DNA of 64,000 nt from a virus (IMGVR_UViG_3300029319_009044:32001-96000), one strand, 5' to 3'. Positions 177 to 60,047 are shown, counted from the first letter of the stretch. Numbers and translations are program-made. The notes: a model not told the origin generated them from the letters alone.

Positions 177-1089
177 TTTCTAAATTTACTAAACAGGCAA
201 AAGCGTTAATTTCTTTATCTACTACAAACGCACTTTTATATAAATGATCAGCAATAGTAGCTATACAAGTCTTCTTTTTGTTATCTTCTAAATTAGAGCT
301 GTATGTAAAATTTAAAAAGTTAGCTAACAAAGTATCATAATCTCCTTGAAATCTATCTTCATTTTCAATAAGATATTTTCTAGCTTCTAAACATTTATTA
401 CTAGCTAATTTTTTGTAAATTGTTTCGAGAAGCTCGTTATCGCTATTAATGTTAGCAATACACAGCTCTGAATCAATAACGTTCTTTTGAAGCTCATTGA
501 TCGCCTTCCGAAGATCGGGGAAGTGACGCTTAACGAGTTGGATGAATTTAATTTTTTGTTCATCTGATACTTTAATATTTTCTTTTTTAAGGATATAATA
601 GCATCGCTTAACAGCAAGTTCTACTACAGGTTTAATATCTAAAGCTTGACAGCGAGATTGCAAGGCAGGAATAATTTTATGCTTATAATTAGCAGTAAGT
701 ATAAACCTACAATACTTAGCAAACGTTTCCATAGTATTTCGCAAAGCAGCTTGCGCTTGAGGGGTAAGTCCATCTGCTTCATCTAGAATTACTACCTTTA
801 CCCCACCGTCAAAAGATTTAGTTTGAGCGAAATTAGTAATATTATGTCTGATAGTATCGATCCCAGACTCATCAGAAGCATTAATATAAAGATAATTACA
901 TCCGAGTATATCGTTAACAATAACTCTTGCAAGCGTGGTCTTACCAGTACCGGGATTACCAACAAAAAGAAGATTAGGAATTTCATTTTTAAACTCTTTA
1001 ACTATATTACGGGTACGTTCATCTAAGATAATATCATCTAGCTTAGCAGGACGATACTTCTCTACCCAAATTTTATCAAAGTCAATCAT
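163..1089 (-). CDS. gp44: Sliding-clamp loader ATPase subunit (T4 gp44 / RFC-like AAA+)
   Basis: WVEKYRP N-terminal box, Walker A GNPGTGKT, NASD, Walker B ILDEAD, SRC motif. Confidence 0.93.
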   Translation of the reverse strand: MIDFDKIWVEKYRPAKLDDIILDERTRNIVKEFKNEIPNLLFVGNPGTGKTTLARVIVNDILGCNYLYINASDESGIDTIRHNITNFAQTKSFDGGVKVVILDEADGLTPQAQAALRNTMETFAKYCRFILTANYKHKIIPALQSRCQALDIKPVVELAVKRCYYILKKENIKVSDEQKIKFIQLVKRHFPDLRKAINELQKNVIDSELCIANINSDNELLETIYKKLASNKCLEARKYLIENEDRFQGDYDTLLANFLNFTYSSNLEDNKKKTCIATIADHLYKSAFVVDKEINAFACLVNLENALH

Positions 1090-1091
1090 AA

Positions 1092-1514
1092 TTATTTACC
1101 AGAAGAACCAAAGCCTTTTTCACCACGAAGCGACTCTTCAATCTCACCTTCACTAACTTCAACATCATGATTATTATAAACTACAAACTGAGCAATTCTA
1201 TCACCTGCTTTGACTTCGTAATCTTTATCAGTTAAGTTATATAGCTTGATTCCAGCACTACCTCTATATCCGGAATCAATAATTCCCGGATGAGGCAGAA
1301 TACCATGTTTAAAGCCTAGGCCAGATCTACCTTCAATTCTAACCCAATAACCAGGCTCAATATATGCAAACTTTAACCCTACCTCAATAACAGCAGATCC
1401 CTTAGCAGGAATTACTTTATCTTCAACACAAGTAACATCTAATCCAGTATCGTCCTTATGATTCTTCGAAGGAAGGACAGCACTCTCGTCAGTCTTCTTA
1501 AATTTTAATATCAT
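1092..1514 (-). CDS. dut: Trimeric dUTPase
   Basis: GLD, RSGL, GIIDSGYRG, RIAQ and C-terminal RGEKGFGSSG motifs. Confidence 0.95.
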   Translation of the reverse strand: MILKFKKTDESAVLPSKNHKDDTGLDVTCVEDKVIPAKGSAVIEVGLKFAYIEPGYWVRIEGRSGLGFKHGILPHPGIIDSGYRGSAGIKLYNLTDKDYEVKAGDRIAQFVVYNNHDVEVSEGEIEESLRGEKGFGSSGK

Positions 1515-1521
1515 ATATACT

Positions 1522-1549
1522 ATAATAAGATACTTTGCAAAATATTCAA
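1522..1549 (-). promoter_or_regulatory. Sigma70-like promoter for dut (TTGAAT-N16-TATTAT-N7-ATG)
   Basis: Motif read directly; same geometry as seven other sites in the window. Confidence 0.5.
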
Positions 1550-1570
1550 GGGTAGATTAAATATATGTAA

Positions 1571-2011
1571 ATGGCTGAAGAATTAGATGAAGCTGTAAAT
1601 GATATTATTGCTCAATTGAAGCAAAATAATAAAGTTGTTAAGGCTCCCGTAGAAGAAAGTTTTCTTAATAAAGAAGACTTGGAAGATTTTCTTATTCAAA
1701 ATTCAGGTAAGCTTATTAAAAAATCTCTCAGTATAGTAGATAATGTAAATGATTATATTTCATCTGCACCTGAAAATAGAGATGTAGCAGCATTAGCTGA
1801 GCTTATAAAAGCTTCTTCATCTGCTATTGAGACTCTTAATAAATTACATGTAGCTAAAGAAAGAAATGAGACACAGATAGAGGTTAAAAAGATAGACGTA
1901 GAGAGTAAAGAGAGATTGAATATTGCTGATAATCAAACTAAAGTACTTTTATCAAGAGATGATATTATGAAAGCTCTTATTGAAGACGAAAAAGAAGTTA
2001 TAGACGTCTAA
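1571..2011 (+). CDS. Probable terminase small subunit (T4 gp16-like)
   Basis: Helical 146-aa protein; SSAPENRDVAALAELIKASSSAIETLNKL resembles the gp16 SPRAYEV...LIK core; late TAAATA at 1558-1563. Confidence 0.5.
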   Translation: MAEELDEAVNDIIAQLKQNNKVVKAPVEESFLNKEDLEDFLIQNSGKLIKKSLSIVDNVNDYISSAPENRDVAALAELIKASSSAIETLNKLHVAKERNETQIEVKKIDVESKERLNIADNQTKVLLSRDDIMKALIEDEKEVIDV

Positions 2012-2580
2012 TAAGCACTAGGACCGGGTACAAGATCACCTAAGTATTGCTGAGTATAAGAATCAGCTGCTGTAGATGGTGTAGCAGGATCAGAAGGAAT
2101 ATCAGTGTTACTATCTGGTAGAGATCTTTCGGGGTTTTCTCGAGCTTGTGGAGCTTCTGTTTTTTCTGCTTCTTCAGGCTTGATATTAACGTTGCTATCT
2201 CTTTTTACTGCATCTGGAATAGGGGGTAAGTTAGGGTAATATTCAACCGATTGGCCAAGATTACTTGGAATAGAAACATGATGGGTATAACGCCCTCCTC
2301 CGGAATCTAAAGCTAAGTCCAATACAACGTCAAGAGTAGTAGTATCAGCATTTGCTGGGTATCGAGCTGAAGTTGTATCTTTAATACCTACAACTCGGAC
2401 ATTTAATCCAGAGTCGATCATTTGTTGTAGTAATTCTTGAGTATTAGATCCAAGTTTTTTAAACTCATCAGTACTCTTAAAGTTATCGTTAAACTTAAAA
2501 CAATCACCTACTAGGAATCCTCCACGCTCGTATCTTCTCATATATGATTCATGCAGATTAATAAACTTTTTGTCAGCCAT
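2008..2580 (-). CDS. Hypothetical late protein (start probably ATG 2580, MADKKF)
   Basis: TAAATA-N5-ATG at 2580 favours this start over 2604; Pro/acidic C-terminus. Confidence 0.55.
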   Translation of the reverse strand: MADKKFINLHESYMRRYERGGFLVGDCFKFNDNFKSTDEFKKLGSNTQELLQQMIDSGLNVRVVGIKDTTSARYPANADTTTLDVVLDLALDSGGGRYTHHVSIPSNLGQSVEYYPNLPPIPDAVKRDSNVNIKPEEAEKTEAPQARENPERSLPDSNTDIPSDPATPSTAADSYTQQYLGDLVPGPSAY

Positions 2581-2625
2581 AATATTATTTATGCTACCTT
2601 GCATTGAATCATACAGTTCGGGCTG

Positions 2626-2892
2626 CTAATCTTTAAGAAACTCTGCTAAAGTATGGTAAGCAGTAAAGACTTCAATTTGATCTTCAGTAGCAGCTCCTAA
2701 ATCTTCCTCTATTTCGAAAGAATGAGATGTATGAGCTACTTTCTTAATAACCCATCTATTATCTTTTAAATACACTTCTCCAAATAACATAGAGGGAAGA
2801 TCTAATTTTTCATAAACAACATCCTTTACTGCATGTGCTAAATCAGAATTGGAGACATCTACACTTATACTAGCTTTACCATTAACGACCAT
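2626..2892 (-). CDS. Hypothetical protein
   Basis: 88-aa ORF preceded by AGGAAC-N5-TATAAT-N6-ATG. Confidence 0.55.
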   Translation of the reverse strand: MVVNGKASISVDVSNSDLAHAVKDVVYEKLDLPSMLFGEVYLKDNRWVIKKVAHTSHSFEIEEDLGAATEDQIEVFTAYHTLAEFLKD

Positions 2893-2946
2893 AATCTAAT
2901 TATATTATAGTTCCTTAATTCTGATATGCTACATTAAATATAATAA

Positions 2947-3435
2947 ATGGCGCTCATTAAATTAACAGATATAGCAGCTAGCGAGTTAGATAATTCTTCT
3001 CTCGAAAATGGTTATCTTTATAAAGATTTGTTTTTAGATTTAGATACTGCTGTTTATTATAACAGAGAACTTAACAAGAGTTCAGTTCTTAAAGATGTAC
3101 AAGGTTTATTTGATGAGAATGCTATCCGAAATAGTATTACAAACATTTTTTTAACTGCTCCAGGTGAAAAAATATTAAGTCCTGAGTTTGGATTAGATCT
3201 TAGACGCTACTTATTTGAACCTATTTCTGAGTTTAATGCTTTTGCTATTAAGGATGATATTAGAAATCGATTACCTATAATGGAACCAAGAATAGAGATA
3301 GATAGAGTAGGTGTTATACCTAATGCGGATTTAAATGAGTATCAAATAACTTTGCAAATTAATATTCCTTCTTTAAATGTGTATGGTATATCACTAAGAT
3401 CAACATTAAATAACAACGGATATTTTATATTTTAA
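2947..3435 (+). CDS. gp25: Baseplate wedge subunit (T4 gp25-like)
   Basis: YKDL, AIRNSITNIFLT-PGE...PEFG..L..YLFEP, EPRI motifs; late TAAATA at 2935-2940. Confidence 0.9.
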   Translation: MALIKLTDIAASELDNSSLENGYLYKDLFLDLDTAVYYNRELNKSSVLKDVQGLFDENAIRNSITNIFLTAPGEKILSPEFGLDLRRYLFEPISEFNAFAIKDDIRNRLPIMEPRIEIDRVGVIPNADLNEYQITLQINIPSLNVYGISLRSTLNNNGYFIF

Positions 3436-3437
3436 TT

Positions 3438-5273
3438 ATGGCTAAATCAAATAAAGATAACGAATTTCTAGAGTTTAACTTACCTCAAAACGCATATGTT
3501 GCTTTTGATGCTGTAAGTCTAAAAGATTATATAGTTAATAGACTTAATACAAATGAAAAGTTTACTGATCAAAATTATGATGGTAGTAATTTAGCTGCTG
3601 TAATAGATATTATTGCATATTCATATCATGTTTTGTTATTTTATTTAAACCAGACAGCCTCTGAAGTTAATTTTAATCAAGCTTCTATTTATGAAAATAT
3701 GAACAAGATAGTTAAGCTGATTGGTTATAAACCTTCTGGTAAACAAACATCTATAGTTCCTATTAATGCAGTTGGTTCAGCTGACATGGCTATAGGTAGT
3801 TATACCATAAGAAAAAATTCTTACTTTTTAGCTGATGGAATTCAATACAATTTTATAGATGATTATTCTTTTAATAAAACAACTACTGGATCAGAAACTA
3901 TAAAAACATTAAACGATACAGTAGTTTTATATCAGGGTACTGTAAAAGAATATCCTGATTATATAGCTCAAGGAGAAGAGTTTGAGCTTTTACCTATAGT
4001 TGTAAAAAATGTAGTAGATACCAATACTGATAAGTTTATAGCAGATAATACTATAGATGTATATGTAAAAGAAGCAGGTAACAGTACATACTATCTTTAT
4101 AAAGAAGTTGATAGTTTATATCTTTCTAATTCTACAGAAAGGGTATATGAAAAGAGGCTAAATGAAAATGGATTTTATGAAATTAAATTTGGAAGCGGTG
4201 TTTTTGGTAAAAAGCTAGCTGCAGGTGATATAGTTTCAGTAAATTATCTTCAATCAGATAATGCTCAAGGAATAATTAGTAAAAATGTAATAAATGGAAA
4301 TAAAATATTCATTTATGATTCACTAAGACAAAGAAGTATTTTTCAAGATACATTTGCTAATAAAGATGAAACAACATTTATCGATAATACTAATAGTTCA
4401 CTCTTAACTATAAATAACCCTCAAGCTTCTACTTCTCTTTCAGATGAAGAGACAGTAGATGAAATACGTAAAAATGCTCCTAAAGCATTTGCTTCTCAAT
4501 TAAGATTAGTAACTGAGTCTGATTATGAGTCTTTTATAGAGAAAAATTTAGCTAATGTTACTAATAGTGTAAAAGTTGTAAATAACGATTCATACATAAA
4601 TGAATATATAAAATATTTTTATGATATATGTATTGATCCAAATAAAGTAAATAGAGTTTTAATAAATCAAATTAATTTTGCTGATTCATGTGATTTTAAT
4701 AATATTAATGTTTTTTGTGCTCCATCATTTACTATTACAGAGGATAAAGCATTTCCCCCATATCTCTCTGAATCATTTAAAAATTTATTAGTCGAAACTT
4801 GTAAGGATAGAAAGATGGTCTCAAATACGGTAGTTCCTCGTGATCCGATTTACATGGCTTACGGGTTAGGTTTTACTAATTCAGCTGATTTAACTCTAGA
4901 TATTTTAGATCAAACTTTTCTTTATATAGTACGAGAAGTTAATAATAAAATTAACAAAGATACACTAAAAGCCAGAGCTGGTAATTTGATAAAAGCATTC
5001 TTTAATCCAAGTAATAATAATCTTGGTCAAAATTTAAAACTAAGTGAATTAGCTAATGATATATTATCTTTAGAAGGAGTTAGAAGAATTTATACTAAAA
5101 ATGATTCTAATGATAGTAGTATAGATACTGTTTCTTTTTTATCCTTTAATCCGGTTTACGAAACAAGCGATATAGCTTTAGTTAATCAAGATATAACTTT
5201 ACCATATTTCAAGTTCCCATATATGTATTCGCCGTTATCGATAACTAATCGTATTAAAGTAATAGATGAGTAA
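3438..5273 (+). CDS. gp6: Baseplate wedge subunit (T4 gp6-like)
   Basis: FTDQNYDGSNL..IIDIIAY, IGYKP, YEIKFGSGVFGKKL, ETVDEIRKNAP...QLRLVT..DY; follows gp25. Confidence 0.88.
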   Translation: MAKSNKDNEFLEFNLPQNAYVAFDAVSLKDYIVNRLNTNEKFTDQNYDGSNLAAVIDIIAYSYHVLLFYLNQTASEVNFNQASIYENMNKIVKLIGYKPSGKQTSIVPINAVGSADMAIGSYTIRKNSYFLADGIQYNFIDDYSFNKTTTGSETIKTLNDTVVLYQGTVKEYPDYIAQGEEFELLPIVVKNVVDTNTDKFIADNTIDVYVKEAGNSTYYLYKEVDSLYLSNSTERVYEKRLNENGFYEIKFGSGVFGKKLAAGDIVSVNYLQSDNAQGIISKNVINGNKIFIYDSLRQRSIFQDTFANKDETTFIDNTNSSLLTINNPQASTSLSDEETVDEIRKNAPKAFASQLRLVTESDYESFIEKNLANVTNSVKVVNNDSYINEYIKYFYDICIDPNKVNRVLINQINFADSCDFNNINVFCAPSFTITEDKAFPPYLSESFKNLLVETCKDRKMVSNTVVPRDPIYMAYGLGFTNSADLTLDILDQTFLYIVREVNNKINKDTLKARAGNLIKAFFNPSNNNLGQNLKLSELANDILSLEGVRRIYTKNDSNDSSIDTVSFLSFNPVYETSDIALVNQDITLPYFKFPYMYSPLSITNRIKVIDE

Positions 5274-28364: not shown

Positions 28365-28396
28365 GTAATTATTTATGCTAGAGAATAAATATTTTT

Positions 28397-28831
28397 ATGA
28401 CTAAATTTGAGAGACGTTTTTTTAGAAATCTACATGAGCAAAATGACGAAAGAGAAGCATTTGAAGCTGAATTAGATGATAATACCGATCCTGGTGATTT
28501 TGATGTAGATACACAGGTTGATGATACAGTAGTAGATGAAGATCCTAGTGTAAAAGCTGCTCAAGCAGTTAATGAACGTAATGAAGCTATGAAAGAAGAG
28601 CTTAGAGGTTGGATTGGTAAGATGGAAGAATTTTTAGACTATCTTAATGGAGAAGAAGCTGGTTCAATACAACAGCAATTAGCTAATGCAGAACCAGATA
28701 CTATTTTTGATAGAATGAAAGCTTCTGAGCAAAGAAAATTAGCTCGGGTAGCTACTGAACTTGCAGGCGTTACTGAATCATTTAAAGGATATTTAGCACA
28801 GACAGGTAATTCTCAGTTTAAGTATGTTTAA
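28397..28831 (+). CDS. Acidic late protein, possible head internal/core protein
   Basis: MTKFERRFFRNLHE targeting-peptide-like start; TAAATA at 28386-28391. Confidence 0.45.
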   Translation: MTKFERRFFRNLHEQNDEREAFEAELDDNTDPGDFDVDTQVDDTVVDEDPSVKAAQAVNERNEAMKEELRGWIGKMEEFLDYLNGEEAGSIQQQLANAEPDTIFDRMKASEQRKLARVATELAGVTESFKGYLAQTGNSQFKYV

Positions 28832-52065: not shown

Positions 52066-52089
52066 CCATATATTATAAATATATATAGA

Positions 52090-52758
52090 ATGGAATCAAT
52101 GGGTAAATTTGAAAAGATCTTTTATAAGTTACTGGAAAACAATATTGCTGGTGGTGGTGGAGCTTTAGGAGATACAGCAGCCGTATACGATCCTGCAGCA
52201 GGTAGAATATCTTCTAATGATGATGTTTATGCACCAGGAGACGCTAGGAGACCTAAAGTATTAGGAAAGGTCGTATCAAGAGCTGGTACAGTTGGAAGTA
52301 AGAAAAAGAAAAAGAAGAAGGAAAAAGACGGTTTAGATGGAGTATATTTAACTGGTGAGAATGAAGAAAATGAAGTGGTGAGTGAAATTGCTCCAGTAGT
52401 ATTAGGTCTTGCTAGAGGTGCTGCAGCAGCTGGTAGAGGTGTTGCTGCTACTGGTAAAGCTTTATCAAGGGGAGCTAGAGTGGTAGCTCCTAAAGTAAAA
52501 AGTGCTGTTAAAAAAGCCGGGGAGTTAGCTATGGCTTCTCCTGTAGATGATATAGCTGCTGCAGCTGTAGATAGTGTAGTTAAAAAATTTAAAAAGAAAG
52601 ATAAAGAAGAAGAGGTGCCTGAGGAAGATGCAGAAAAGAAAAAAGCTGATAGATGTAAGCGTAGAGCAGATTCAGTTTATGGTAAAAAGACATCAGCTTA
52701 CAAGTCTGGGGCCATTGTAAGATGTAGACAAGGTAAAATTTGGAAGAAGAAAAAATGA
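52090..52758 (+). CDS. Basic modular late protein (putative internal head polyprotein)
   Basis: TATAAATA at 52074-52081; Lys-rich modules separated by acidic linkers; C-terminal C..RA...Y...SAY.SGAIV.CR module. Confidence 0.55.
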   Translation: MESMGKFEKIFYKLLENNIAGGGGALGDTAAVYDPAAGRISSNDDVYAPGDARRPKVLGKVVSRAGTVGSKKKKKKKEKDGLDGVYLTGENEENEVVSEIAPVVLGLARGAAAAGRGVAATGKALSRGARVVAPKVKSAVKKAGELAMASPVDDIAAAAVDSVVKKFKKKDKEEEVPEEDAEKKKADRCKRRADSVYGKKTSAYKSGAIVRCRQGKIWKKKK

Positions 52759-53501
52759 CCCAAAAAGAACTACTCGAAGCTAGCGACTCTCTTCGTCAAT
52801 GGTTTAAGAGAGGTGGGACTGATCCTAAGACTGGTAAAAAGTTTAAGGGTTGGATAAATTGTAAGACAGGAGGACCTTGTGGACGTAAGTCTAAAAAATC
52901 AGGAGGTAGTTACCCTGCTTGCAGACCTACTAAAGCTGCATGTAATAAGATAAAGGGTAAAATGTATAAAAAGAAAAGCTCAAAGAGAGTTAATTGGAAG
53001 AAAAAGAGTGAAAATGCTGAAGAGCCTAAAAAAGGTACTGGTAAAAAACCAAAGGGTTCAAGTAGAAGATTATATACTGATGAAAATCCTAAGGATACAG
53101 TAAGTGTAAAATATAGTACAGTGGGGGATATAAGAGAGACTCTTAACAAATCTTCGTTTAAGAGTAAGTCTCATGCAAGACAGTCACAAATAATTAATTT
53201 GATACATCAAAGAGTAAGAGCAGCTCGTGGTAGAGTAAAAGATCCACAAAAGAAAAAAAGTTTAGCTGCTGCTTTTGAATACATTACAAAGAAAAAAGAA
53301 GCTAGTAAGCGTAAGACTAAACGTATGAGAGAAGAAGATGCTGAAAAGAAAAATATACATAAGCCCGTAAAGCCCGGTATACTTAAAAAGCGTTTAGGTA
53401 GCTTATCATGTAGTAAGGTAAGAGGTGCTAAAAGTAAATTAAAAAATAAAGGTACACATTATGCAAAGGCTTTACAGCGCTATTTAAATTATCATTGTTA
53501 G
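52755..53501 (+). CDS. Basic modular late protein (start probably ATG 52755, MTQKELLE)
   Basis: ATGA overlap; LRQWFK...CGR...YPACRP, RLYTDENPKDTV and KPGILK modules split by ENAE and EEDAE. Confidence 0.6.
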   Translation: MTQKELLEASDSLRQWFKRGGTDPKTGKKFKGWINCKTGGPCGRKSKKSGGSYPACRPTKAACNKIKGKMYKKKSSKRVNWKKKSENAEEPKKGTGKKPKGSSRRLYTDENPKDTVSVKYSTVGDIRETLNKSSFKSKSHARQSQIINLIHQRVRAARGRVKDPQKKKSLAAAFEYITKKKEASKRKTKRMREEDAEKKNIHKPVKPGILKKRLGSLSCSKVRGAKSKLKNKGTHYAKALQRYLNYHC

Positions 53502-53514
53502 AATAAATATTGTT

Positions 53515-54210
53515 ATGAAATTCGACGACCTAGTAAAGCGTATAATAGAAGAAAATTGGGAAAAGGGTACTTCTAAAGCTCCAAAAGGTAAATCATTTGA
53601 TATGGAAAGAGGTGGAGCTCCTAGTAATGTAGATGCAGCTAGGGATGGTTCGGGGGGTAGATACAGACGGACTCGTCCTCCTAGTGCACCTTCGAAAAAG
53701 ACCCATGGTGAAATGGAAGAATCACCTAAAGAGGATAATGAAAAGAAAAAATCTGATAAGGTAAAAATTTATAGAGGTAAAGATTATAAAGTAAAAGTCG
53801 AGAAGGGTAAAAGATTTACAAAGAATGGTATTTATATGAAAGTATATTATCAAAATCCTAGTCTATCTAAAGAGAGACATAAACAAATAGCTAATCAAAT
53901 ACATAGAGCTATATCAGATGAAGAGTCGCCTGAAGAAGATGCAGAATATAGAGGGAGAAAAGTAAAACTTAACAAACCTACGAGAGGTGATGTTAAAAAG
54001 TTTAAAGTATACGTTAAAGATCCGAAAACAGGTAACGTTAAAAAGGTAAACTTCGGTCATGGAGGTACATCTGCTAAAAGAAAGGGTGAAAAGACGATGA
54101 AGATTCGTAAAAGTAATCCAAAAGCTCGTAAATCATTTAGAGCTAGACATAATTGTGATAATCCTGGTCCAAAGACTAAAGCTAGGTATTGGTCTTGTAG
54201 AAAGTGGTAG
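53515..54210 (+). CDS. Basic modular late protein
   Basis: TAAATA-N5-ATG; C-terminal YRGRKVKLNKP...KFKVYVK...SFRARH.C...ARYWSC module, common in T4-like phages. Confidence 0.65.
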   Translation: MKFDDLVKRIIEENWEKGTSKAPKGKSFDMERGGAPSNVDAARDGSGGRYRRTRPPSAPSKKTHGEMEESPKEDNEKKKSDKVKIYRGKDYKVKVEKGKRFTKNGIYMKVYYQNPSLSKERHKQIANQIHRAISDEESPEEDAEYRGRKVKLNKPTRGDVKKFKVYVKDPKTGNVKKVNFGHGGTSAKRKGEKTMKIRKSNPKARKSFRARHNCDNPGPKTKARYWSCRKW

Positions 54211-54602
54211 ATTTAGGTCATTGGGAGGGGGTTCTAGAGGAAAATGTGGACCTACCTTATGGTTTCATTTATAAGATAACTAATCTTACTAATGATAAAA
54301 AATATATTGGTAAGAAGCAGTGTCAATCAATAAAAAAACGACCTCCTTTGAAAGGTAAAAAGAATAAACGTCACGAAAAAATAGAAACAGATTGGAAAAC
54401 CTACACTTCTTCATCAAATGAACTTAATAAAGACTTAGAACAGTTAGGAAAGGATAATTTTAAGTTTGAAATACTTAGATGGTGTGATTCTAAGTGGGAG
54501 TTGAGTTATTACGAAGCTAGATTACAATTTAAAGAAGAAGTATTGCTACGTAATGACTACTATAACGGAATCATCAATGTTAGAATCGGAGGCCGTAAGT
54601 GA
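54204..54602 (+). CDS. GIY-YIG endonuclease (catalytic domain only)
   Basis: GFIYKITN...KYIGKK, conserved E and YYN. Confidence 0.82.
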   Translation: MVDLGHWEGVLEENVDLPYGFIYKITNLTNDKKYIGKKQCQSIKKRPPLKGKKNKRHEKIETDWKTYTSSSNELNKDLEQLGKDNFKFEILRWCDSKWELSYYEARLQFKEEVLLRNDYYNGIINVRIGGRK

Positions 54603-55047
54603 TCCTGTACGTGGTTTTGAGTTTATTGATCTTAATAAGTGTCTAGCGAGGTCTTTTAACCAATATTTGTTGTATATTACTGAAAATGAGCTAAAATTAA
54701 CAAGAAAAGATAAGAATAAGCTTGGTATTCACTTTATTATAAAAGAGTTAGTTAAAGTTTGTAAAAAAACTAATAATAAAAAATGGTTTTACTACAAAAC
54801 TAACGGTAAATCTATTGAACATACGCTTATAAAACGTATTTTTAATGCTTTACCTACTAATATCACTTACAATGAAGGTAGTTTTAGTACATTTCTAGAA
54901 GAAAGAGATTACATTTCATTTGCTAAGAAGGATACATCAGCAGTTTCTTTCTATAAGTTTAGATTATTTCTTCGTAGATATGAATTACAACAAATAGAAA
55001 AAGAGTTTCTATCTAATATAAATATAAAACTCTCGTTACTTCCATAA
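54553..55047 (+). CDS. Hypothetical protein (start may be ATG 54577)
   Basis: 164-aa ORF filling the operon. Confidence 0.45.
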   Translation: MTTITESSMLESEAVSDPVRGFEFIDLNKCLARSFNQYLLYITENELKLTRKDKNKLGIHFIIKELVKVCKKTNNKKWFYYKTNGKSIEHTLIKRIFNALPTNITYNEGSFSTFLEERDYISFAKKDTSAVSFYKFRLFLRRYELQQIEKEFLSNINIKLSLLP

Positions 55048-55055
55048 ATATATAC

Positions 55056-55403
55056 ATGAGTAAATTTTTGAATTTGGTTGAAGATAATAGACCAGAAAAA
55101 GACATTGATGAACTTACTAATGCTAAAAGATCTTTGCAGCGGCTTTTACTAAAAAATAAAATCGAAGCACATGGAATAGCTTTTCAAGATATATTACGAG
55201 TAAGATTAGATGATGGTCGAGTTGTTGAACTAGAGGTTAAAGATGTTCAACGTCCAGAGGATAATGAAATGCTCAATAAAGAATTTGAAAGTAAAGCAAA
55301 AACTGATCAAAGATATGCTAAGGCTTTAAAAGATAGAAAAGATGCTTTAGATAAAAAGTTAATGGACTTTGAAAAAGAAACGCAAGAAATAGAAACATCG
55401 TGA
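55056..55403 (+). CDS. Hypothetical late protein, putative internal protein
   Basis: TAAATA-N5-ATG; MSKFLNLVE start; PEDNE. Confidence 0.5.
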   Translation: MSKFLNLVEDNRPEKDIDELTNAKRSLQRLLLKNKIEAHGIAFQDILRVRLDDGRVVELEVKDVQRPEDNEMLNKEFESKAKTDQRYAKALKDRKDALDKKLMDFEKETQEIETS

Positions 55404-55933
55404 AAACTTTAAAATTAATAGAAAGTTACATGCGTATACTTGAGCAGGATGATACTGAAGTAGAGGATGTAAAAATAGATGCTGAGGTTGATAAGTCTGA
55501 ACCTTCTCCTGGCGAACAATCTATCGCAGAGTTGATTGCCTCAGCTTTCGCTTATTTACCTACTGATCAAGAAGCTGAAACTGTAGAGGAATTAGAAATA
55601 AAAAAGGTTGGTACACATAATCAAGCTCCTCCAACTAAAGATATTAATCCTCGTTCTGTAATAAAGAGTGTTATTTCAAGATTACCTGTTGGTTTAAGAG
55701 CAGTATATACTAGAGGACCTGGTTTAGGTGGCATTACACCTGAATCGGAGATATATTTAGCTCAAATATTAGCTGATGCGTTTAGATATAAACCAACTTC
55801 ACAAGATGCTCATATAGCTAGTACAGTTAATAAACAATTTAATGATACTGAACCAATGAAAGTAATTGAAACTATTGAAAGATTACTTCAGTTTTCAGAT
55901 GAACCCTTAGAAGATGAACTTTTAGACAATTAA
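55400..55933 (+). CDS. Hypothetical protein with internal duplication
   Basis: GTG start; LIASAFAYLPT and ILADAFRYKPT are repeated halves. Confidence 0.5.
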   Translation: MKTLKLIESYMRILEQDDTEVEDVKIDAEVDKSEPSPGEQSIAELIASAFAYLPTDQEAETVEELEIKKVGTHNQAPPTKDINPRSVIKSVISRLPVGLRAVYTRGPGLGGITPESEIYLAQILADAFRYKPTSQDAHIASTVNKQFNDTEPMKVIETIERLLQFSDEPLEDELLDN

Positions 55934-55937
55934 TATT

Positions 55938-56993
55938 ATGCAGTGGGAATTAGAAAAGATTTATAAAGAACAAGTTAAAGGTAATATACCTCCTCGTAAA
56001 CATTTACGTGTTATAGGAGAGAATGTAGGTTTATATACTAAAGGAGAAGAAGGTTATAATCATATTGGAGATGTTTCAGATGATAACTTTAAAAAAATTA
56101 CTAGATTAGCGTCAGACGGAAATGCTAAAGATGAAATAGAAGATTATTTAACTAAAAAATCTTATACTACAGATTCCTTTAAAGGTGAAGATGATTATAG
56201 AGTTTTGGTAGACTTACTTGATGATGGTGCTTTTGAAGAATATATTGGTCAAGATAAACCTTCACTAGAAAAAAATAAATTAGGTAATATTATTAACATA
56301 TCTTCTAAAGTGGGTTTAGATACAAAGATGGCAGAGCGCTTAGCAAGATTTACACCTATTGATAAAGGTGGTAGCAATGTAGGACCTGGAGAAATTTTAC
56401 TCGCGTTAACGTTTAATGATGTATCTAATTCAACTATTGGGGGTGATTTAATGTTAGGTGATCAAAAGCTTGAAGTTAAAGGTCAAGGAGGTAGATTTGG
56501 TCAACAACCTGGTAGAGGAGGAGTAGCTTTTTCTGTTAATCAAGTTGAGGAAGGGTTAGATAAGAAACTTGATCTCGATAATGTAGTTTCTTTAGAGAAA
56601 CTTATAAGTTCTTTATATAACGCTTATAAGCAAGAAGGAAAAGAAAAAGAGTTTATTCCTAGATTACATGAAACTTTAAAAACAGCTTACCCTGGAGCTG
56701 ATTTAAATTATTTAAACAATTCTACTGATTTTAACGACTTAGGTACAAGGCAAGGTAGACGAATTCTACCAGGAGCTATTAGAAAAGCTTTAGGTAAAAT
56801 TAATTTTGATTACTATTCATCTAAATATGATACTGATTTATATATTTTTATTGATAAGAAAAGTTTAAATTACGCTCTATTTACTAAAGATGATGTTTTA
56901 AAAGATGGGGGTTTAATAGATCAAAATATTTTAAAATCTGATAGTTTTTCTAGAAACACCTTATATCCAAACTTTATATACATTTTTAAATGA
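55938..56993 (+). CDS. Putative PD-(D/E)xK restriction-endonuclease-fold protein
   Basis: GPGEILL...GGDLMLGDQKLEVKG (E...D...ExK pattern). Confidence 0.55.
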   Translation: MQWELEKIYKEQVKGNIPPRKHLRVIGENVGLYTKGEEGYNHIGDVSDDNFKKITRLASDGNAKDEIEDYLTKKSYTTDSFKGEDDYRVLVDLLDDGAFEEYIGQDKPSLEKNKLGNIINISSKVGLDTKMAERLARFTPIDKGGSNVGPGEILLALTFNDVSNSTIGGDLMLGDQKLEVKGQGGRFGQQPGRGGVAFSVNQVEEGLDKKLDLDNVVSLEKLISSLYNAYKQEGKEKEFIPRLHETLKTAYPGADLNYLNNSTDFNDLGTRQGRRILPGAIRKALGKINFDYYSSKYDTDLYIFIDKKSLNYALFTKDDVLKDGGLIDQNILKSDSFSRNTLYPNFIYIFK

Positions 56994-58201
56994 AAAGCTT
57001 TAAACTATATTTCGAACAATACGAGCTTTTAAACGAAGCTAAGGCTAATACTCACCTTACACATTTAGAAGAGCTTATCCTTACTAAGGGAGAAGGCGGC
57101 TATAAGACTGCAAGAGGTTTTATAACCGATTTGCTTTCACATTTACAGGGTAAGAGTAAAAGAAAAGTAAATACATCAGTTAAATGGGATGGCGCTCCTG
57201 CTATTTTTGCTGGTAAGCATCCAGAGACTGGTAAATTTTTTGTAGGTACTAAATCTATATTCAATAGAGAGCCTAAAATTAATTATACAGATAACGACGT
57301 TGAGATGAATCATGGTCATGCTCCTGGTTTAGCAGATAAATTAAAGAAAGCTCTTAAGTATCTTCCTAAGCTTGGTATTAAAGGTATACTTCAAGGTGAT
57401 TTTATGTTTGATTCTTCATCTGTTAACAAGGAAGTTATTGATGGAGTAGATCATTTTACATTTAAACCAAACACTATTAAGTATGCTGTAGAGAAAGATT
57501 CTAAATTAGGTCGTGAAATAGCTAATTCAGTATTTGGTATTGTATTTCATACAGGATATGCTGACTTAAATAGTCCTCCACAATATGGTATTAATGTAAA
57601 AGGACTTAAAAAGGTACCAGGTGTATGGGTTGATGATGCTATATTTACTGATTCTACTGGAACAGTTACACTTACGACAGATGAAGCAAAACAAGTAAGA
57701 GATTATGTAAAGACAGCAGATTCAATAAAAGTTGATTATAGAGATTTACCTTTAGATTTACTAAACATTTACGCTAATTCTGAGATTCAAAAGGGTATGT
57801 TTTTAGAAGACCCTGAAGTTTCATTTAATAACTTTGTTGATTGGTTCAAAGGTAGAATGACTAAAGAGATTGAAAAGAGAAAGTCTAAAGCTGGAAAACT
57901 TAAAGTAGAAGAAAGTTTTAAGAAGAAAATGGCTGAATTCAATCAGCAAAAAGATGATATAGTAAATATTTTTAAGGTAAGTAAATTACTTTCACAAGCT
58001 AAACAAATCTTTATTAACAAGTATAATAATGCTGTATATAATACTAAGCATTTCTTAGATGCAGAAGATGGTACATTAAAAGTAACTTCACCAGAAGGTT
58101 ACGTAAGTGTATCTAAAGCTGGTGATGCTGTAAAGCTTGTAGATAGATTAGAGTTTAGTCGTGCTAACTTTAGTGGAGGTCAAACAAGTACAAAAAAATG
58201 A
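56990..58201 (+). CDS. Ligase-superfamily covalent nucleotidyltransferase (DUF6267-like)
   Basis: Motif I KWDG, motif III-like LQGD, motif IV PEGYV, motif V VKLV; HLTHLEE N-terminal block. Confidence 0.65.
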   Translation: MKSFKLYFEQYELLNEAKANTHLTHLEELILTKGEGGYKTARGFITDLLSHLQGKSKRKVNTSVKWDGAPAIFAGKHPETGKFFVGTKSIFNREPKINYTDNDVEMNHGHAPGLADKLKKALKYLPKLGIKGILQGDFMFDSSSVNKEVIDGVDHFTFKPNTIKYAVEKDSKLGREIANSVFGIVFHTGYADLNSPPQYGINVKGLKKVPGVWVDDAIFTDSTGTVTLTTDEAKQVRDYVKTADSIKVDYRDLPLDLLNIYANSEIQKGMFLEDPEVSFNNFVDWFKGRMTKEIEKRKSKAGKLKVEESFKKKMAEFNQQKDDIVNIFKVSKLLSQAKQIFINKYNNAVYNTKHFLDAEDGTLKVTSPEGYVSVSKAGDAVKLVDRLEFSRANFSGGQTSTKK

Positions 58202-58701
58202 AAACATTTAGAGAATATTTTGAAGAAAACAAAGCTATTGAGTCACTTAAAGGGTGGAAGCATGATGATGCTCAAAAATATGCAATAAAATTAATTAAGC
58301 AATTTGGTGAACCTGATGAGGTAACTGAAAGTATGCTACTTTGGAATAATATAGAGCCGCCATTTGAATCTGTTTATATAAAAGATGAAAGTATACCTCA
58401 TGATTTTCCAGCTTCTCATAGAGATTTTGTTTATTCAACTATGAATATAGACGTACCAGCTGATATGTTAGATACGTTAGGTCATGTTACTGGTAGTATT
58501 ATTTATGATGGTCTTAAAAAAGAAGTAACTGCAAGATGCGGTGACTTATATGCTAATGCAGCTACTTTAGGTTTTGTAAAAGATATGGTTGATGGTAAGA
58601 TTTCAACTGATTTTGAAGAAGCTAAAAAAGAGTATGCTAATAGGATTCAAAAAGCTCCTCTACCTGATTGGTATCCAGATAGTATGGAGGAAGATAAATG
58701 A
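58198..58701 (+). CDS. Conserved hypothetical protein with capsid-targeting-like N-terminus
   Basis: MKTFREYFEE; FGEP, HDFPASHRD, GSIIYD, TARC motifs. Confidence 0.55.
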   Translation: MKTFREYFEENKAIESLKGWKHDDAQKYAIKLIKQFGEPDEVTESMLLWNNIEPPFESVYIKDESIPHDFPASHRDFVYSTMNIDVPADMLDTLGHVTGSIIYDGLKKEVTARCGDLYANAATLGFVKDMVDGKISTDFEEAKKEYANRIQKAPLPDWYPDSMEEDK

Positions 58702-59237
58702 AGACTTTTAAAGAATATTTTGAAGATCAAGAATCTACTTCAGAAAAAGTAGCTCTTTTACCTGGTGGGTTTAAACCTCCTACTAAAGGTCACTTTAATG
58801 CTTTAAGGTATTTGCTACAGGATACAGATAAAGGTGTTGTTTTTATAGGAGGTAAAGAGAGAGACGGTATAACCCCTGAGCAATCAGAAAAAATATGGAA
58901 CATATATTCTAACTACTTAGGTAAACCTGTTAACGTTGTAGATGTACCAAATCCAGTTAGAGCAGTATACGAGTTTGCAGATGATAACTTAGATAAGACT
59001 TTATTTGTAGGTGCAGGAGCAAAAGATGAAGATGTAAAACGATATGCTTACTTTATCAATAATGTTGATAAGTACCCATTAGTTAATGTTGTAAAAATAC
59101 CTATGCAAGAAGGTGGTATTTCCGGAAGTCAAACACGTGAATTAATTAGTAAAGATATAGATAAAGCTTTAAATTATTTTGTTCCAGAAGAAGTTTCGTC
59201 TGATGATAAAGAACGAATAAAAAACATACTTGCATAA
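58698..59237 (+). CDS. HIGH-family (cytidylyltransferase-like) nucleotidyltransferase
   Basis: LPGGFKPPTKGH and KMSKS-like ISGSQTR; MKTFKEYFE start. Confidence 0.8.
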   Translation: MKTFKEYFEDQESTSEKVALLPGGFKPPTKGHFNALRYLLQDTDKGVVFIGGKERDGITPEQSEKIWNIYSNYLGKPVNVVDVPNPVRAVYEFADDNLDKTLFVGAGAKDEDVKRYAYFINNVDKYPLVNVVKIPMQEGGISGSQTRELISKDIDKALNYFVPEEVSSDDKERIKNILA

Positions 59238-59245
59238 ATATTAAT

Positions 59246-59620
59246 ATGAGAGATCAAAAGCGTAAAGAAATGGCTTTAATGGAAGCTGCATATATGAATG
59301 TAGGGCATGGCTCAGATTGTCAATGCTCTAGTTGTATGGGTGAACATGATCAATCTGAAATAGATATGGCAGGTCGCGATCTTCTTAAAGCTAGAGAGTA
59401 CGCTGAAAAATTAAGTATGATGGTTCAACAATTACCTGGTCTCGAAGGGTGGGTAGCTTCTAAAATTACTAAAGCATCTGATTATCTTTCTTCTGTATTT
59501 CATTATCTAGATTATGAAATGAACGAAAAGGGTCATCATCAAAATGATCATGAGCAACAAATAGCTATAGTAGTTAAACCAGATCAAGGTAATTTTAACA
59601 AAGGATATGAAGAAGTTTAA
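59246..59620 (+). CDS. Conserved phage hypothetical protein
   Basis: MA...L...LEGWVASKITKASDYL..V..YL motif; TAAATA-N5-ATG. Confidence 0.55.
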   Translation: MRDQKRKEMALMEAAYMNVGHGSDCQCSSCMGEHDQSEIDMAGRDLLKAREYAEKLSMMVQQLPGLEGWVASKITKASDYLSSVFHYLDYEMNEKGHHQNDHEQQIAIVVKPDQGNFNKGYEEV

Positions 59621-60047
59621 ACAGTTCTTTGCAGAAAAGACTGTATTAGGTCTTATTGAATTTTTTGATGTAGATGGTGTAGGTAAGATTCCATCTAAAT
59701 TAGATTCTGGTAATGGTGCATTTAACGTTATACATGGTGAAGATATCCAAATACAAGGTAATAAGGTTCATTTCAAGACTGTTAATAATAAACGTCTAAT
59801 GAAAGATAAGGTTGACGATATTACTATTAATGTTGGAGCAGGTCATACTGAAGATAGACCTGTAGTTAATTTTGATTTAAAAATTGGTAACAAGGAATAT
59901 AAAGATATTCCATTTTCTGTAGGAGATAGAACTACTAACCTATTTAAAATATTAGTTAGTAAAGATTTTATTGAAAAAGAGCTTGACGCTCTAATAGATG
60001 TCAGTAAAGAAAATATAGCCCATAAGGATATAGAGGCAAATTATTAA
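59607..60047 (+). CDS. Retropepsin-like aspartic protease (RimK-associated / RimB-like)
   Basis: LGLIE...G.I..KLDSG, EDRPVV, F..GDR, IL...F; MKKFKQFFAE start. Confidence 0.72.
   Translation: MKKFKQFFAEKTVLGLIEFFDVDGVGKIPSKLDSGNGAFNVIHGEDIQIQGNKVHFKTVNNKRLMKDKVDDITINVGAGHTEDRPVVNFDLKIGNKEYKDIPFSVGDRTTNLFKILVSKDFIEKELDALIDVSKENIAHKDIEANY

Follow-up and report, generated by a model that had tools for sequence, protein, structure and literature searches.

Four late-cluster proteins of an uncultured marine T4-like phage, at least three of them enzyme-like, share an N-terminal peptide that resembles the T4 capsid-targeting leader

We found that four otherwise unrelated proteins, encoded in one late gene cluster of an uncultured marine virus, begin with nearly the same 10-residue peptide, which we read as a T4-type capsid-targeting leader. 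The cluster lies in a window of 64,000 nucleotides, bases 32001-96000 of a single 170,908-bp IMG/VR virus record (IMGVR_UViG_3300029319_009044; G+C content, 32%), and coordinates below are those of the window unless the genome is named. An earlier, sequence-only reading of the window had reported four such starts, and all four open reading frames (ORFs) and their N termini were found where it had placed them. That diverse internal proteins of T-even phages have only a capsid-targeting sequence (CTS) in common is textbook knowledge. We put the probability that the shared peptide is a T4-type capsid-targeting leader at roughly 0.7 and consider loading of the four proteins into the capsid about equally probable; our confidence in injection and in a counter-defence role is lower. 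The four tagged genes are as follows.

56990..58201, plus strand: tagged DUF6267 protein of 403 residues; a leader of about 16 residues, then a predicted RNA-ligase-like adenylyltransferase domain
58198..58701, plus strand: tagged alpha/beta protein of unknown function, 167 residues; conserved core from near residue 20
58698..59237, plus strand: tagged putative HxGH-type (cytidylyltransferase/NMNAT/PPAT-like) nucleotidyltransferase of 179 residues
59607..60047, plus strand: tagged predicted retropepsin-like (PF05618, RimB-type) aspartic protease of 146 residues; domain from residue 13

The starts at 56990, 58198, 58698 and 59607 share the form M-K-x-F-[KR]-x-[YF]-F-x-[EDQ]. When the whole genome was searched in six frames with the strict pattern M-K-[KTS]-F-[KRQS]-x-[FY]-F-x-[EDQ], these four ORF starts were the only matches, against a chance expectation of 0.00017 calculated from amino-acid frequencies over 1605 candidate starts. 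A position matrix made from orthologue leaders gave the four starts scores of 20.5 to 28.1 bits, which is 6.4 to 7.9 standard deviations (SD) above the mean of the 1605 candidate starts (mean, -12.4 bits; SD, 5.1), and the next-best genuine ORF start in the genome reached 9.2 bits. No similarity among the four tagged proteins was found outside the leader. The codons of the four leaders vary at synonymous sites and the DNA upstream of them is unrelated, so that the repeat lies in a peptide under selection and not in the DNA. The synonymous differences and the unrelated flanking DNA also ruled out a DNA repeat or mobile cassette as the origin of the common start.

The leader is retained in orthologues of all four tagged proteins across 80 related IMG/VR loci, whose DUF6267 proteins are 62-98% identical to that of the window. 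Among these orthologues, Phe 4 is invariant, the seventh residue is either Tyr or Phe, and the eighth can be Phe, Tyr or Ile. A matrix score of at least 10 bits was reached by 200 of the 1980 ORFs in the 80 loci, and all of these except 6 UvsY ORFs belong to families of the cargo cluster. About six tagged families seen in the relatives are missing from the window, including a Pol-beta-type nucleotidyltransferase, a second HxGH nucleotidyltransferase and a DUF4112 protein; the tagged HxGH nucleotidyltransferase of one relative (locus L044) passes the PF01467 cut-off. Farther afield, most DUF6267 representatives at about 35-45% identity carry a leader of the same form, 12-19 residues long, before a conserved N-x-H-L-x-H core, and a minority of DUF6267 homologues, including the S-PM2 and S-SZBM1 proteins, have no leader and start directly at the core. 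In the AlphaFold2 (AF2) models of 56990 and 58198, the leader is the only low-confidence N-terminal part: the predicted local distance difference test (pLDDT) score is 91.4 for 56990 and about 60 for its residues 1-20, and 91.5 for 58198 and 58 for its first 10 residues. Together, these comparisons indicate that the leader is under purifying selection across 35-98% protein identity and that it is portable across about 10 cargo families in this lineage, the portability being a new addition of this analysis.

A weak leader look-alike was also seen at the start of UvsY (PF11056; 51670-52065, minus strand), which scored 7.1 bits here and 10.7 bits in some relatives. We took this resemblance as chance, UvsY being a replication/recombination gene on the opposite strand.

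The shared peptide matches the T4 leaders at the positions that matter for targeting. In T4, the first ten residues of IPIII are enough for encapsidation, and mutational mapping assigns positions 4 and 7 to targeting and positions 8 and 10 to processing (PMC9026906). In the marine leaders, Phe always occupies position 4 and Tyr or Phe position 7; the positions under conservation here are those of T4 targeting. We scored the ipI, ipII, ipIII and alt leaders, taken from NC_000866, on a matrix built from marine sequences only: IPI reached 12.7 bits and IPII/III 8.3 bits, 4-5 SD above background, and Alt (propeptide, -2.1 bits), gp67, gp68 and gp21-24 all fell below zero. At six of its first seven positions the 58698 leader is identical to that of T4 IPI, the leader of 59607 runs parallel to that of IPII/III over its full length, and a distant marine homologue of 58198 (P0145) agrees with the IPII/III leader at 9 of 10 residues; a related-locus search with P0145 found no relative.

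The genome also encodes the partners that such a leader would need for assembly and processing. The phage is an uncultured marine T4-like myovirus with baseplate and tail genes, gp43, gp46/47, UvsW and UvsY. Its prohead protease was identified as Peptidase_S77 (PF03420, E value 1.2e-32) and its major capsid protein gene product as gp23 (PF07068, E value 4.7e-88), and a gp22-like scaffold ORF sits between the protease and gp23 genes. Judged by the DUF6267 protein, Pelagibacter phage HTVC008M and Methylophilales phage Melnitz come closest among isolates (about 36-38% identity), and both are classed in Kyanoviridae; a megablast search of the region against the phage collection gave no match.

The tagged genes are placed for late expression. 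Across the genome, a NATAAATA box followed by exactly 5-6 nucleotides and then ATG occurs 34 times (34 of 44 box-plus-ORF pairs). It stands before the genes for the portal, prohead protease, baseplate and tail, as well as before 52090, 53515, 55056 and 59246. With the box this close to the ATG, late mRNAs may have little or no leader and lack room for a Shine-Dalgarno sequence. Examples of the box in the window are as follows.

55044-55050, plus strand: late box, 5 nucleotides ahead of the ATG of 55056
59234-59240: late box before 59246
52074-52089, 53502-53514, 55043-55055, 59233-59245 and 28384-28396: stretches with the NATAAATA box ahead of an ATG

The genes at 56990, 58198 and 58698 lie downstream of the 55056 box and are coupled through ATGA overlaps, and 59607, which overlaps its upstream neighbour by 14 nucleotides, follows the 59246 box; the mostly overlap-coupled arrangement described earlier is thus borne out. 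From this promoter pattern, we predict that the tagged genes are expressed late, together with the head genes.

We then considered what the cargo proteins might do. The 56990 protein falls in DUF6267 (PF19782, E value 1e-95), and its K65-x-D67-G68, E369-G370 and K382 do not vary among 54 diverse homologues (34-45% identity). When its AF2 model was compared with known structures by VIA-align, 24 of the 25 top matches were RNA or DNA ligases, with Z scores from 8.9 down to 5.5, values close to the quoted noise ceiling of the tool. RNA ligases led the list (Z 8.9-7.3), among them NgrRnl (Z 8.9), Trl1 (8.8), REL1 (7.9), T4 Rnl1 (7.6) and Rnl2 (7.5), with DNA ligases and capping enzymes next. Foldseek returned nothing significant for the AF2 models of 56990 and 58198, and a PDB sequence-profile search with DUF6267 gave no meaningful match. 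The modelled fold lends moderate support to an RNA-ligase-like assignment for DUF6267, which agrees with the KxDG ligase-family call made in the sequence-only reading. The family is large, with more than 2000 clusters at 50% identity in metagenomes. Many of the 50%-identity representatives (P0192-P0208 and others) are 570-1090 residues long with the domain at either end, so that fused forms, or gene calls merged with neighbouring cluster genes, must be common.

For 58198, read earlier as a His/Cys-motif protein, an alignment of 30 homologues showed D63, E64, H68, H74, D76 and C114 to be invariant. No Pfam or PHROG family was found, the protein atlas was uninformative, and VIA-align matches to a type III secretion system chaperone/YbjN fold (Z about 5) were too weak to take as function. 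In 58698, P-P-T-K-G-H and I-S-G-S-x-T-R motifs are invariant. The protein itself had no Pfam match at an E value of 0.01, its profile aligned over the full length but weakly with PPAT/NMNAT structures (E values 0.07-0.5, the best PDB profile match being 0.07; PPAT 4f3r was aligned), and it matched the phrog_395 cytidyltransferase family at 2e-4. By its signature motifs and this weak full-length alignment, we classify 58698 as a predicted HxGH-type nucleotidyltransferase, as its HIGH-like motif had suggested. Finally, 59607 matched PF05618 with an E value of 1.3e-4, the single sequence falling under the curated cut-off (22.3 versus 27 bits), and the profile of its orthologues matched PDB 9g58 with an E value of 6.9e-7. 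D33-S34-G35 is invariant, and the earlier aspartic protease call accordingly holds as a predicted PF05618 retropepsin-like protease.

The strongest external evidence, the physical presence of proteins of this kind in virions, comes from cyanophages. A cytidylyltransferase/NMNAT-like protein is a cyanomyovirus core gene product (T4-GC190), and it has been detected in purified virions of four phages, by mass spectrometry in S-SM1 (PMC3037559), S-SZBM1 (PMC9146016) and S-SCSM1 (PMC9602691), and also in S-CREM2 (PMC10665884). Translation of the genes showed that the NMNAT-like proteins of S-SM1, S-SCSM1 and P-SSM2 start with M-K-[SK]-F-x-x-F-L-x-E; the leader of the S-SZBM1 protein is one residue shorter and ends I-I-E, followed by Ala. 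The S-SCSM1 annotation gives every one of ORFs 89-93 as a virion protein. SSZBM1_141, a DUF6267 homologue that lacks the leader and is encoded next to the NMNAT-like gene, is absent from the list of 30 S-SZBM1 virion proteins (PMC9146016). The cyanophage virion papers make no mention of a targeting leader; a full-text search for CTS together with cyanophage yielded a reference-list match only, and DUF6267 occurred in no searchable paper.

The ends of the leaders were compared with the site that the T4 prohead protease cuts. In T4, gp21 cuts after L/I-x-Glu, and Asp at position 10 prevents cleavage, not targeting (PMC9026906). A hydrophobic-x-Glu is conserved in every tagged family, and with Glu at residues 8-18 it is present in 110 of 111 distinct leaders, chosen by their targeting half only, versus 390 of 1278 (31%) other N termini. 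The candidate sites in the window are F-A-E in 59607, F-E-E in 58198 and Y-F-E, followed by Asp, in 58698; 56990 has a classical L-N-E at residues 14-16 and then Ala 17, directly ahead of the conserved core. Glu 10 is invariant in the 59607 family, in which Phe and Ile alternate at the residue two before it, and this alternation hints at a slightly different protease preference.

The claim that enzyme-like late proteins carry T4-type capsid-targeting leaders is well supported, though only indirectly, by the T4 match at mapped positions, the protease and scaffold genes, the late boxes, the modular leader and the virion-borne cyanophage homologues. Several observations weigh against it. The 111 leaders of the cleavage-site count were drawn from few families and are not independent, and only 59% of them contain the strict L/I-x-E. 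The residue two before Glu is mostly Phe or Tyr, not the Leu or Ile of the T4 gp21 consensus, and position 10 is Asp in 58698 and Gln in 56990. Virion detection concerns cyanophage homologues only, and neither this phage nor a close relative. BLAST of 58698 against the virion-proven cyanophage enzymes gave only a 24-residue motif match (E value 0.004), so that the link between them rests on motifs, fold class and synteny. Moreover, SSZBM1_139, SSCSM1_90 and SSCSM1_92, which are encoded in syntenic clusters, were detected in virions and have no leader, and the leader is consequently not the sole route into the particle.

The genes around the tagged ones bear on where the cargo might act. The remaining features of the plus-strand block are as follows.

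55938..56993, plus strand: untagged 351-residue protein with a PD-(D/E)xK-like motif, translationally coupled and upstream of the tagged genes
55056..55933, plus strand: first two genes of the operon, 115 and 177 residues, each with its own conserved leader ending hydrophobic-x-Glu
59246..59620, plus strand: untagged acidic protein of 124 residues with its own late box, heading the transcription unit that contains 59607
52090..54210, plus strand: three very basic late proteins, each with a short leader, in which E-[DN]-[AN]-E motifs recur
54204..55047, plus strand: SegE-type GIY-YIG homing endonuclease (PF19835, E value 2e-33) and an overlapping ORF

The proteins encoded at 52090, 52740 and 53515 have isoelectric points (pI) of 9.8-10.5 and short leaders, and they share with 55056 one or two copies each of an E-[DN]-[AN]-E motif, mostly E-E-D-A-E followed by Lys or Tyr. 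Residues 16-64 of the first (52090-52758, plus strand) are 46% identical over 56 residues to residues 57-112 of the phage's own gp23 (E value 6e-9). The gp23-like part begins at the predicted gp23 maturation cleavage site, giving a layout of leader, copy of the mature gp23 N-terminal arm and Lys-rich tail. From these features, we regard 52090, 52740 and 53515 as candidate DNA-associated internal proteins of the head core, and such core-like basic proteins at 52090-54210 support the view that the plus-strand block 52090-60047 as a whole is head-internal in identity. The SegE-type endonuclease at 54204 is a mobile insertion within the cluster and not cargo.

Looser versions of the peptide had been proposed at 28397, 52090, 53515 and 55056, and this proposal holds in part. 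The last three have conserved leaders of their own that end hydrophobic-x-Glu, that of 55056 scoring 2.5 bits on the matrix with its start conserved in orthologues; the start at 28397 was not shown to belong. As for the PD-(D/E)xK nuclease proposed at 55938, the motif stands, with D170 and E179-V-K181 invariant in 9 orthologues. Beyond the motif, no match was found in PDB or Pfam, and in the atlas the closest clusters that carry a name are type II restriction endonucleases (0.79-0.80), a sub-threshold lead only.

A fifth leader-like ORF (9.2 bits, 205 residues) was seen in a second late overlap-coupled operon near the genome end (locus L092, genome 166500-170908; minus strand, 667-3599). This operon also encodes acidic proteins with E-D-A-E-type motifs and a start of the E-L-L-E-E-A type, and it is possibly another set of head proteins.

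Among other explanations of the shared peptide, the one that survives best accepts that it loads proteins into the prohead and places their work inside the head or during assembly, in DNA condensation, end protection or turnover of the scaffold and core, rather than in the host as injected effectors. The structural or DNA-binding look of the neighbours at 52090-54210, with their pI of about 10 and a copy of the gp23 N-terminal arm, suits this explanation, as does the presence of a protease, which in the prohead could serve maturation; in T4, the core proteins gp67 and gp68 are likewise loaded and then degraded (PMC9026906). However, three of the four cargoes bear intact catalytic signatures, those of a protease or of soluble enzymes that act on nucleotides or RNA, for which a sealed capsid offers no obvious substrate, and CTS-loaded proteins of T4, large foreign fusions included, are delivered into the cell (PMC9026906). 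We consider work confined to the head improbable.

Less probable still is a signal unrelated to the capsid, whether an enhancer of translation initiation or coupling, a degradation signal at the N terminus or a peptide that docks the proteins to some other late complex. The constancy of the residues in spite of synonymous variation speaks against any signal at the mRNA level, even though the genes are tightly coupled and Lys-rich codons 2-3 are frequent in AT-rich genomes. The pattern also extends to residue 10, invariant aromatics included, and matches T4 leaders of proven function. Leader-bearing homologues are physically present in virions, albeit those of cyanophages and not of this phage. 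Chance resemblance, or a neutral scar of recombination at shared gene boundaries of the kind through which T4-type genomes shuffle genes (PMC2839356, PMC4122927), is effectively refuted by the four matches against an expectation of 0.00017, by flanking DNA that is not common to the four genes and by purifying selection over 35-98% identity.

If the shared peptide is a T4-type capsid-targeting leader, the following course of events can be proposed. The four proteins would be made late, and their N-terminal eight or so residues, with Phe 4 and Tyr/Phe 7, would dock them onto the scaffolding core during prohead assembly. A gp21-type prohead protease would then probably trim the leader at hydrophobic-x-Glu, 9-16 residues in. 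The mature proteins, namely an RNA-ligase-like protein, an HxGH nucleotidyltransferase, a retropepsin-like protease and one of unknown function, would remain in the DNA-filled head and, by analogy with T4 IPI-III and Alt, leave it with the DNA at infection. We infer the docking, the cleavage, the ejection and any host role, the last two by comparison with T4.

T4 already provides the mechanism, and NMNAT-like enzymes carried in virions have been published before, so that this work extends a known mechanism and does not describe a new one. New here are the link between the T4 CTS and the virion-borne NMNAT-like enzymes and the RNA-ligase-like assignment for DUF6267. The link offers a mechanism for a recurrent unexplained finding, the presence of NMNAT/cytidylyltransferase-like enzymes in purified cyanophage particles, and suggests an ancient origin for the T4 head-loading signal, which Straboviridae and the abundant marine T4-like phages would both have conserved. 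DUF6267 gains a likely location, the virion, and a likely fold, and a simple sequence rule becomes available for predicting packaged, and probably injected, proteins in uncultured ocean phages. More speculatively, the leader could serve marine T4-like phages in general (Kyanoviridae and relatives) as an address label readable from sequence, with packed RNA-ligase-like and NMNAT-like enzymes undoing the damage of host abortive infection at time zero; we hold this wider idea to be doubtful. Were it true, metagenomes could be used to list the proteins that thousands of uncultured phages inject, and cut tRNAs and NAD+ depletion would be reversed before any phage gene expression.

The closest known system is the CTS of T4 IPI, IPII and IPIII, described by Mullaney and Black (reviewed in PMC9026906 and PMC3012670), likewise an N-terminal leader of about 10 residues common to otherwise unrelated proteins, with an M-K-T start, aromatic residues at positions 4 and 7 and Glu at or near position 10. 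In both systems the genes are late, and the genome that holds them also codes for a scaffold and a gp21-type protease. They differ in that the phage described here is a Kyanoviridae-like marine myovirus known from sequence alone, that position 8 of the marine leaders is Phe or Tyr and not Ile, and that Glu is missing from position 10 in two of them. The cargo differs as well, comprising enzyme-like proteins of 146-403 residues in the marine phage, whereas that of T4 consists of small GmrSD inhibitors. T4 Alt, an ADP-ribosyltransferase, is a precedent for an enzyme that enters the head by way of a gp21-cut N-terminal propeptide and, in its case, is delivered with the DNA; its propeptide is of a different leader type, and its enzymology differs too.

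Among enzymes, the DUF6267 model aligns best with ATP-dependent RNA ligases (T4 Rnl1/Rnl2, NgrRnl, Trl1 and REL1) and keeps the K-x-D-G adenylylation motif as well as the E-G and K motifs. Unlike these ligases, the family has a large helical insert at residues 230-348 and no sequence-level match to them. The 58698 protein, of 179 residues, is shorter than the cyanomyovirus NMNAT-like proteins (T4-GC190; S-SM1, S-SZBM1, S-SCSM1, S-CREM2 and S-CBWM1), which have 360-420 residues and an extra N-terminal region, and similarity between them is confined to the motif region. It nevertheless shares with them its predicted fold class, its motifs and its type of leader, and it is encoded in the same syntenic cluster, beside DUF6267.

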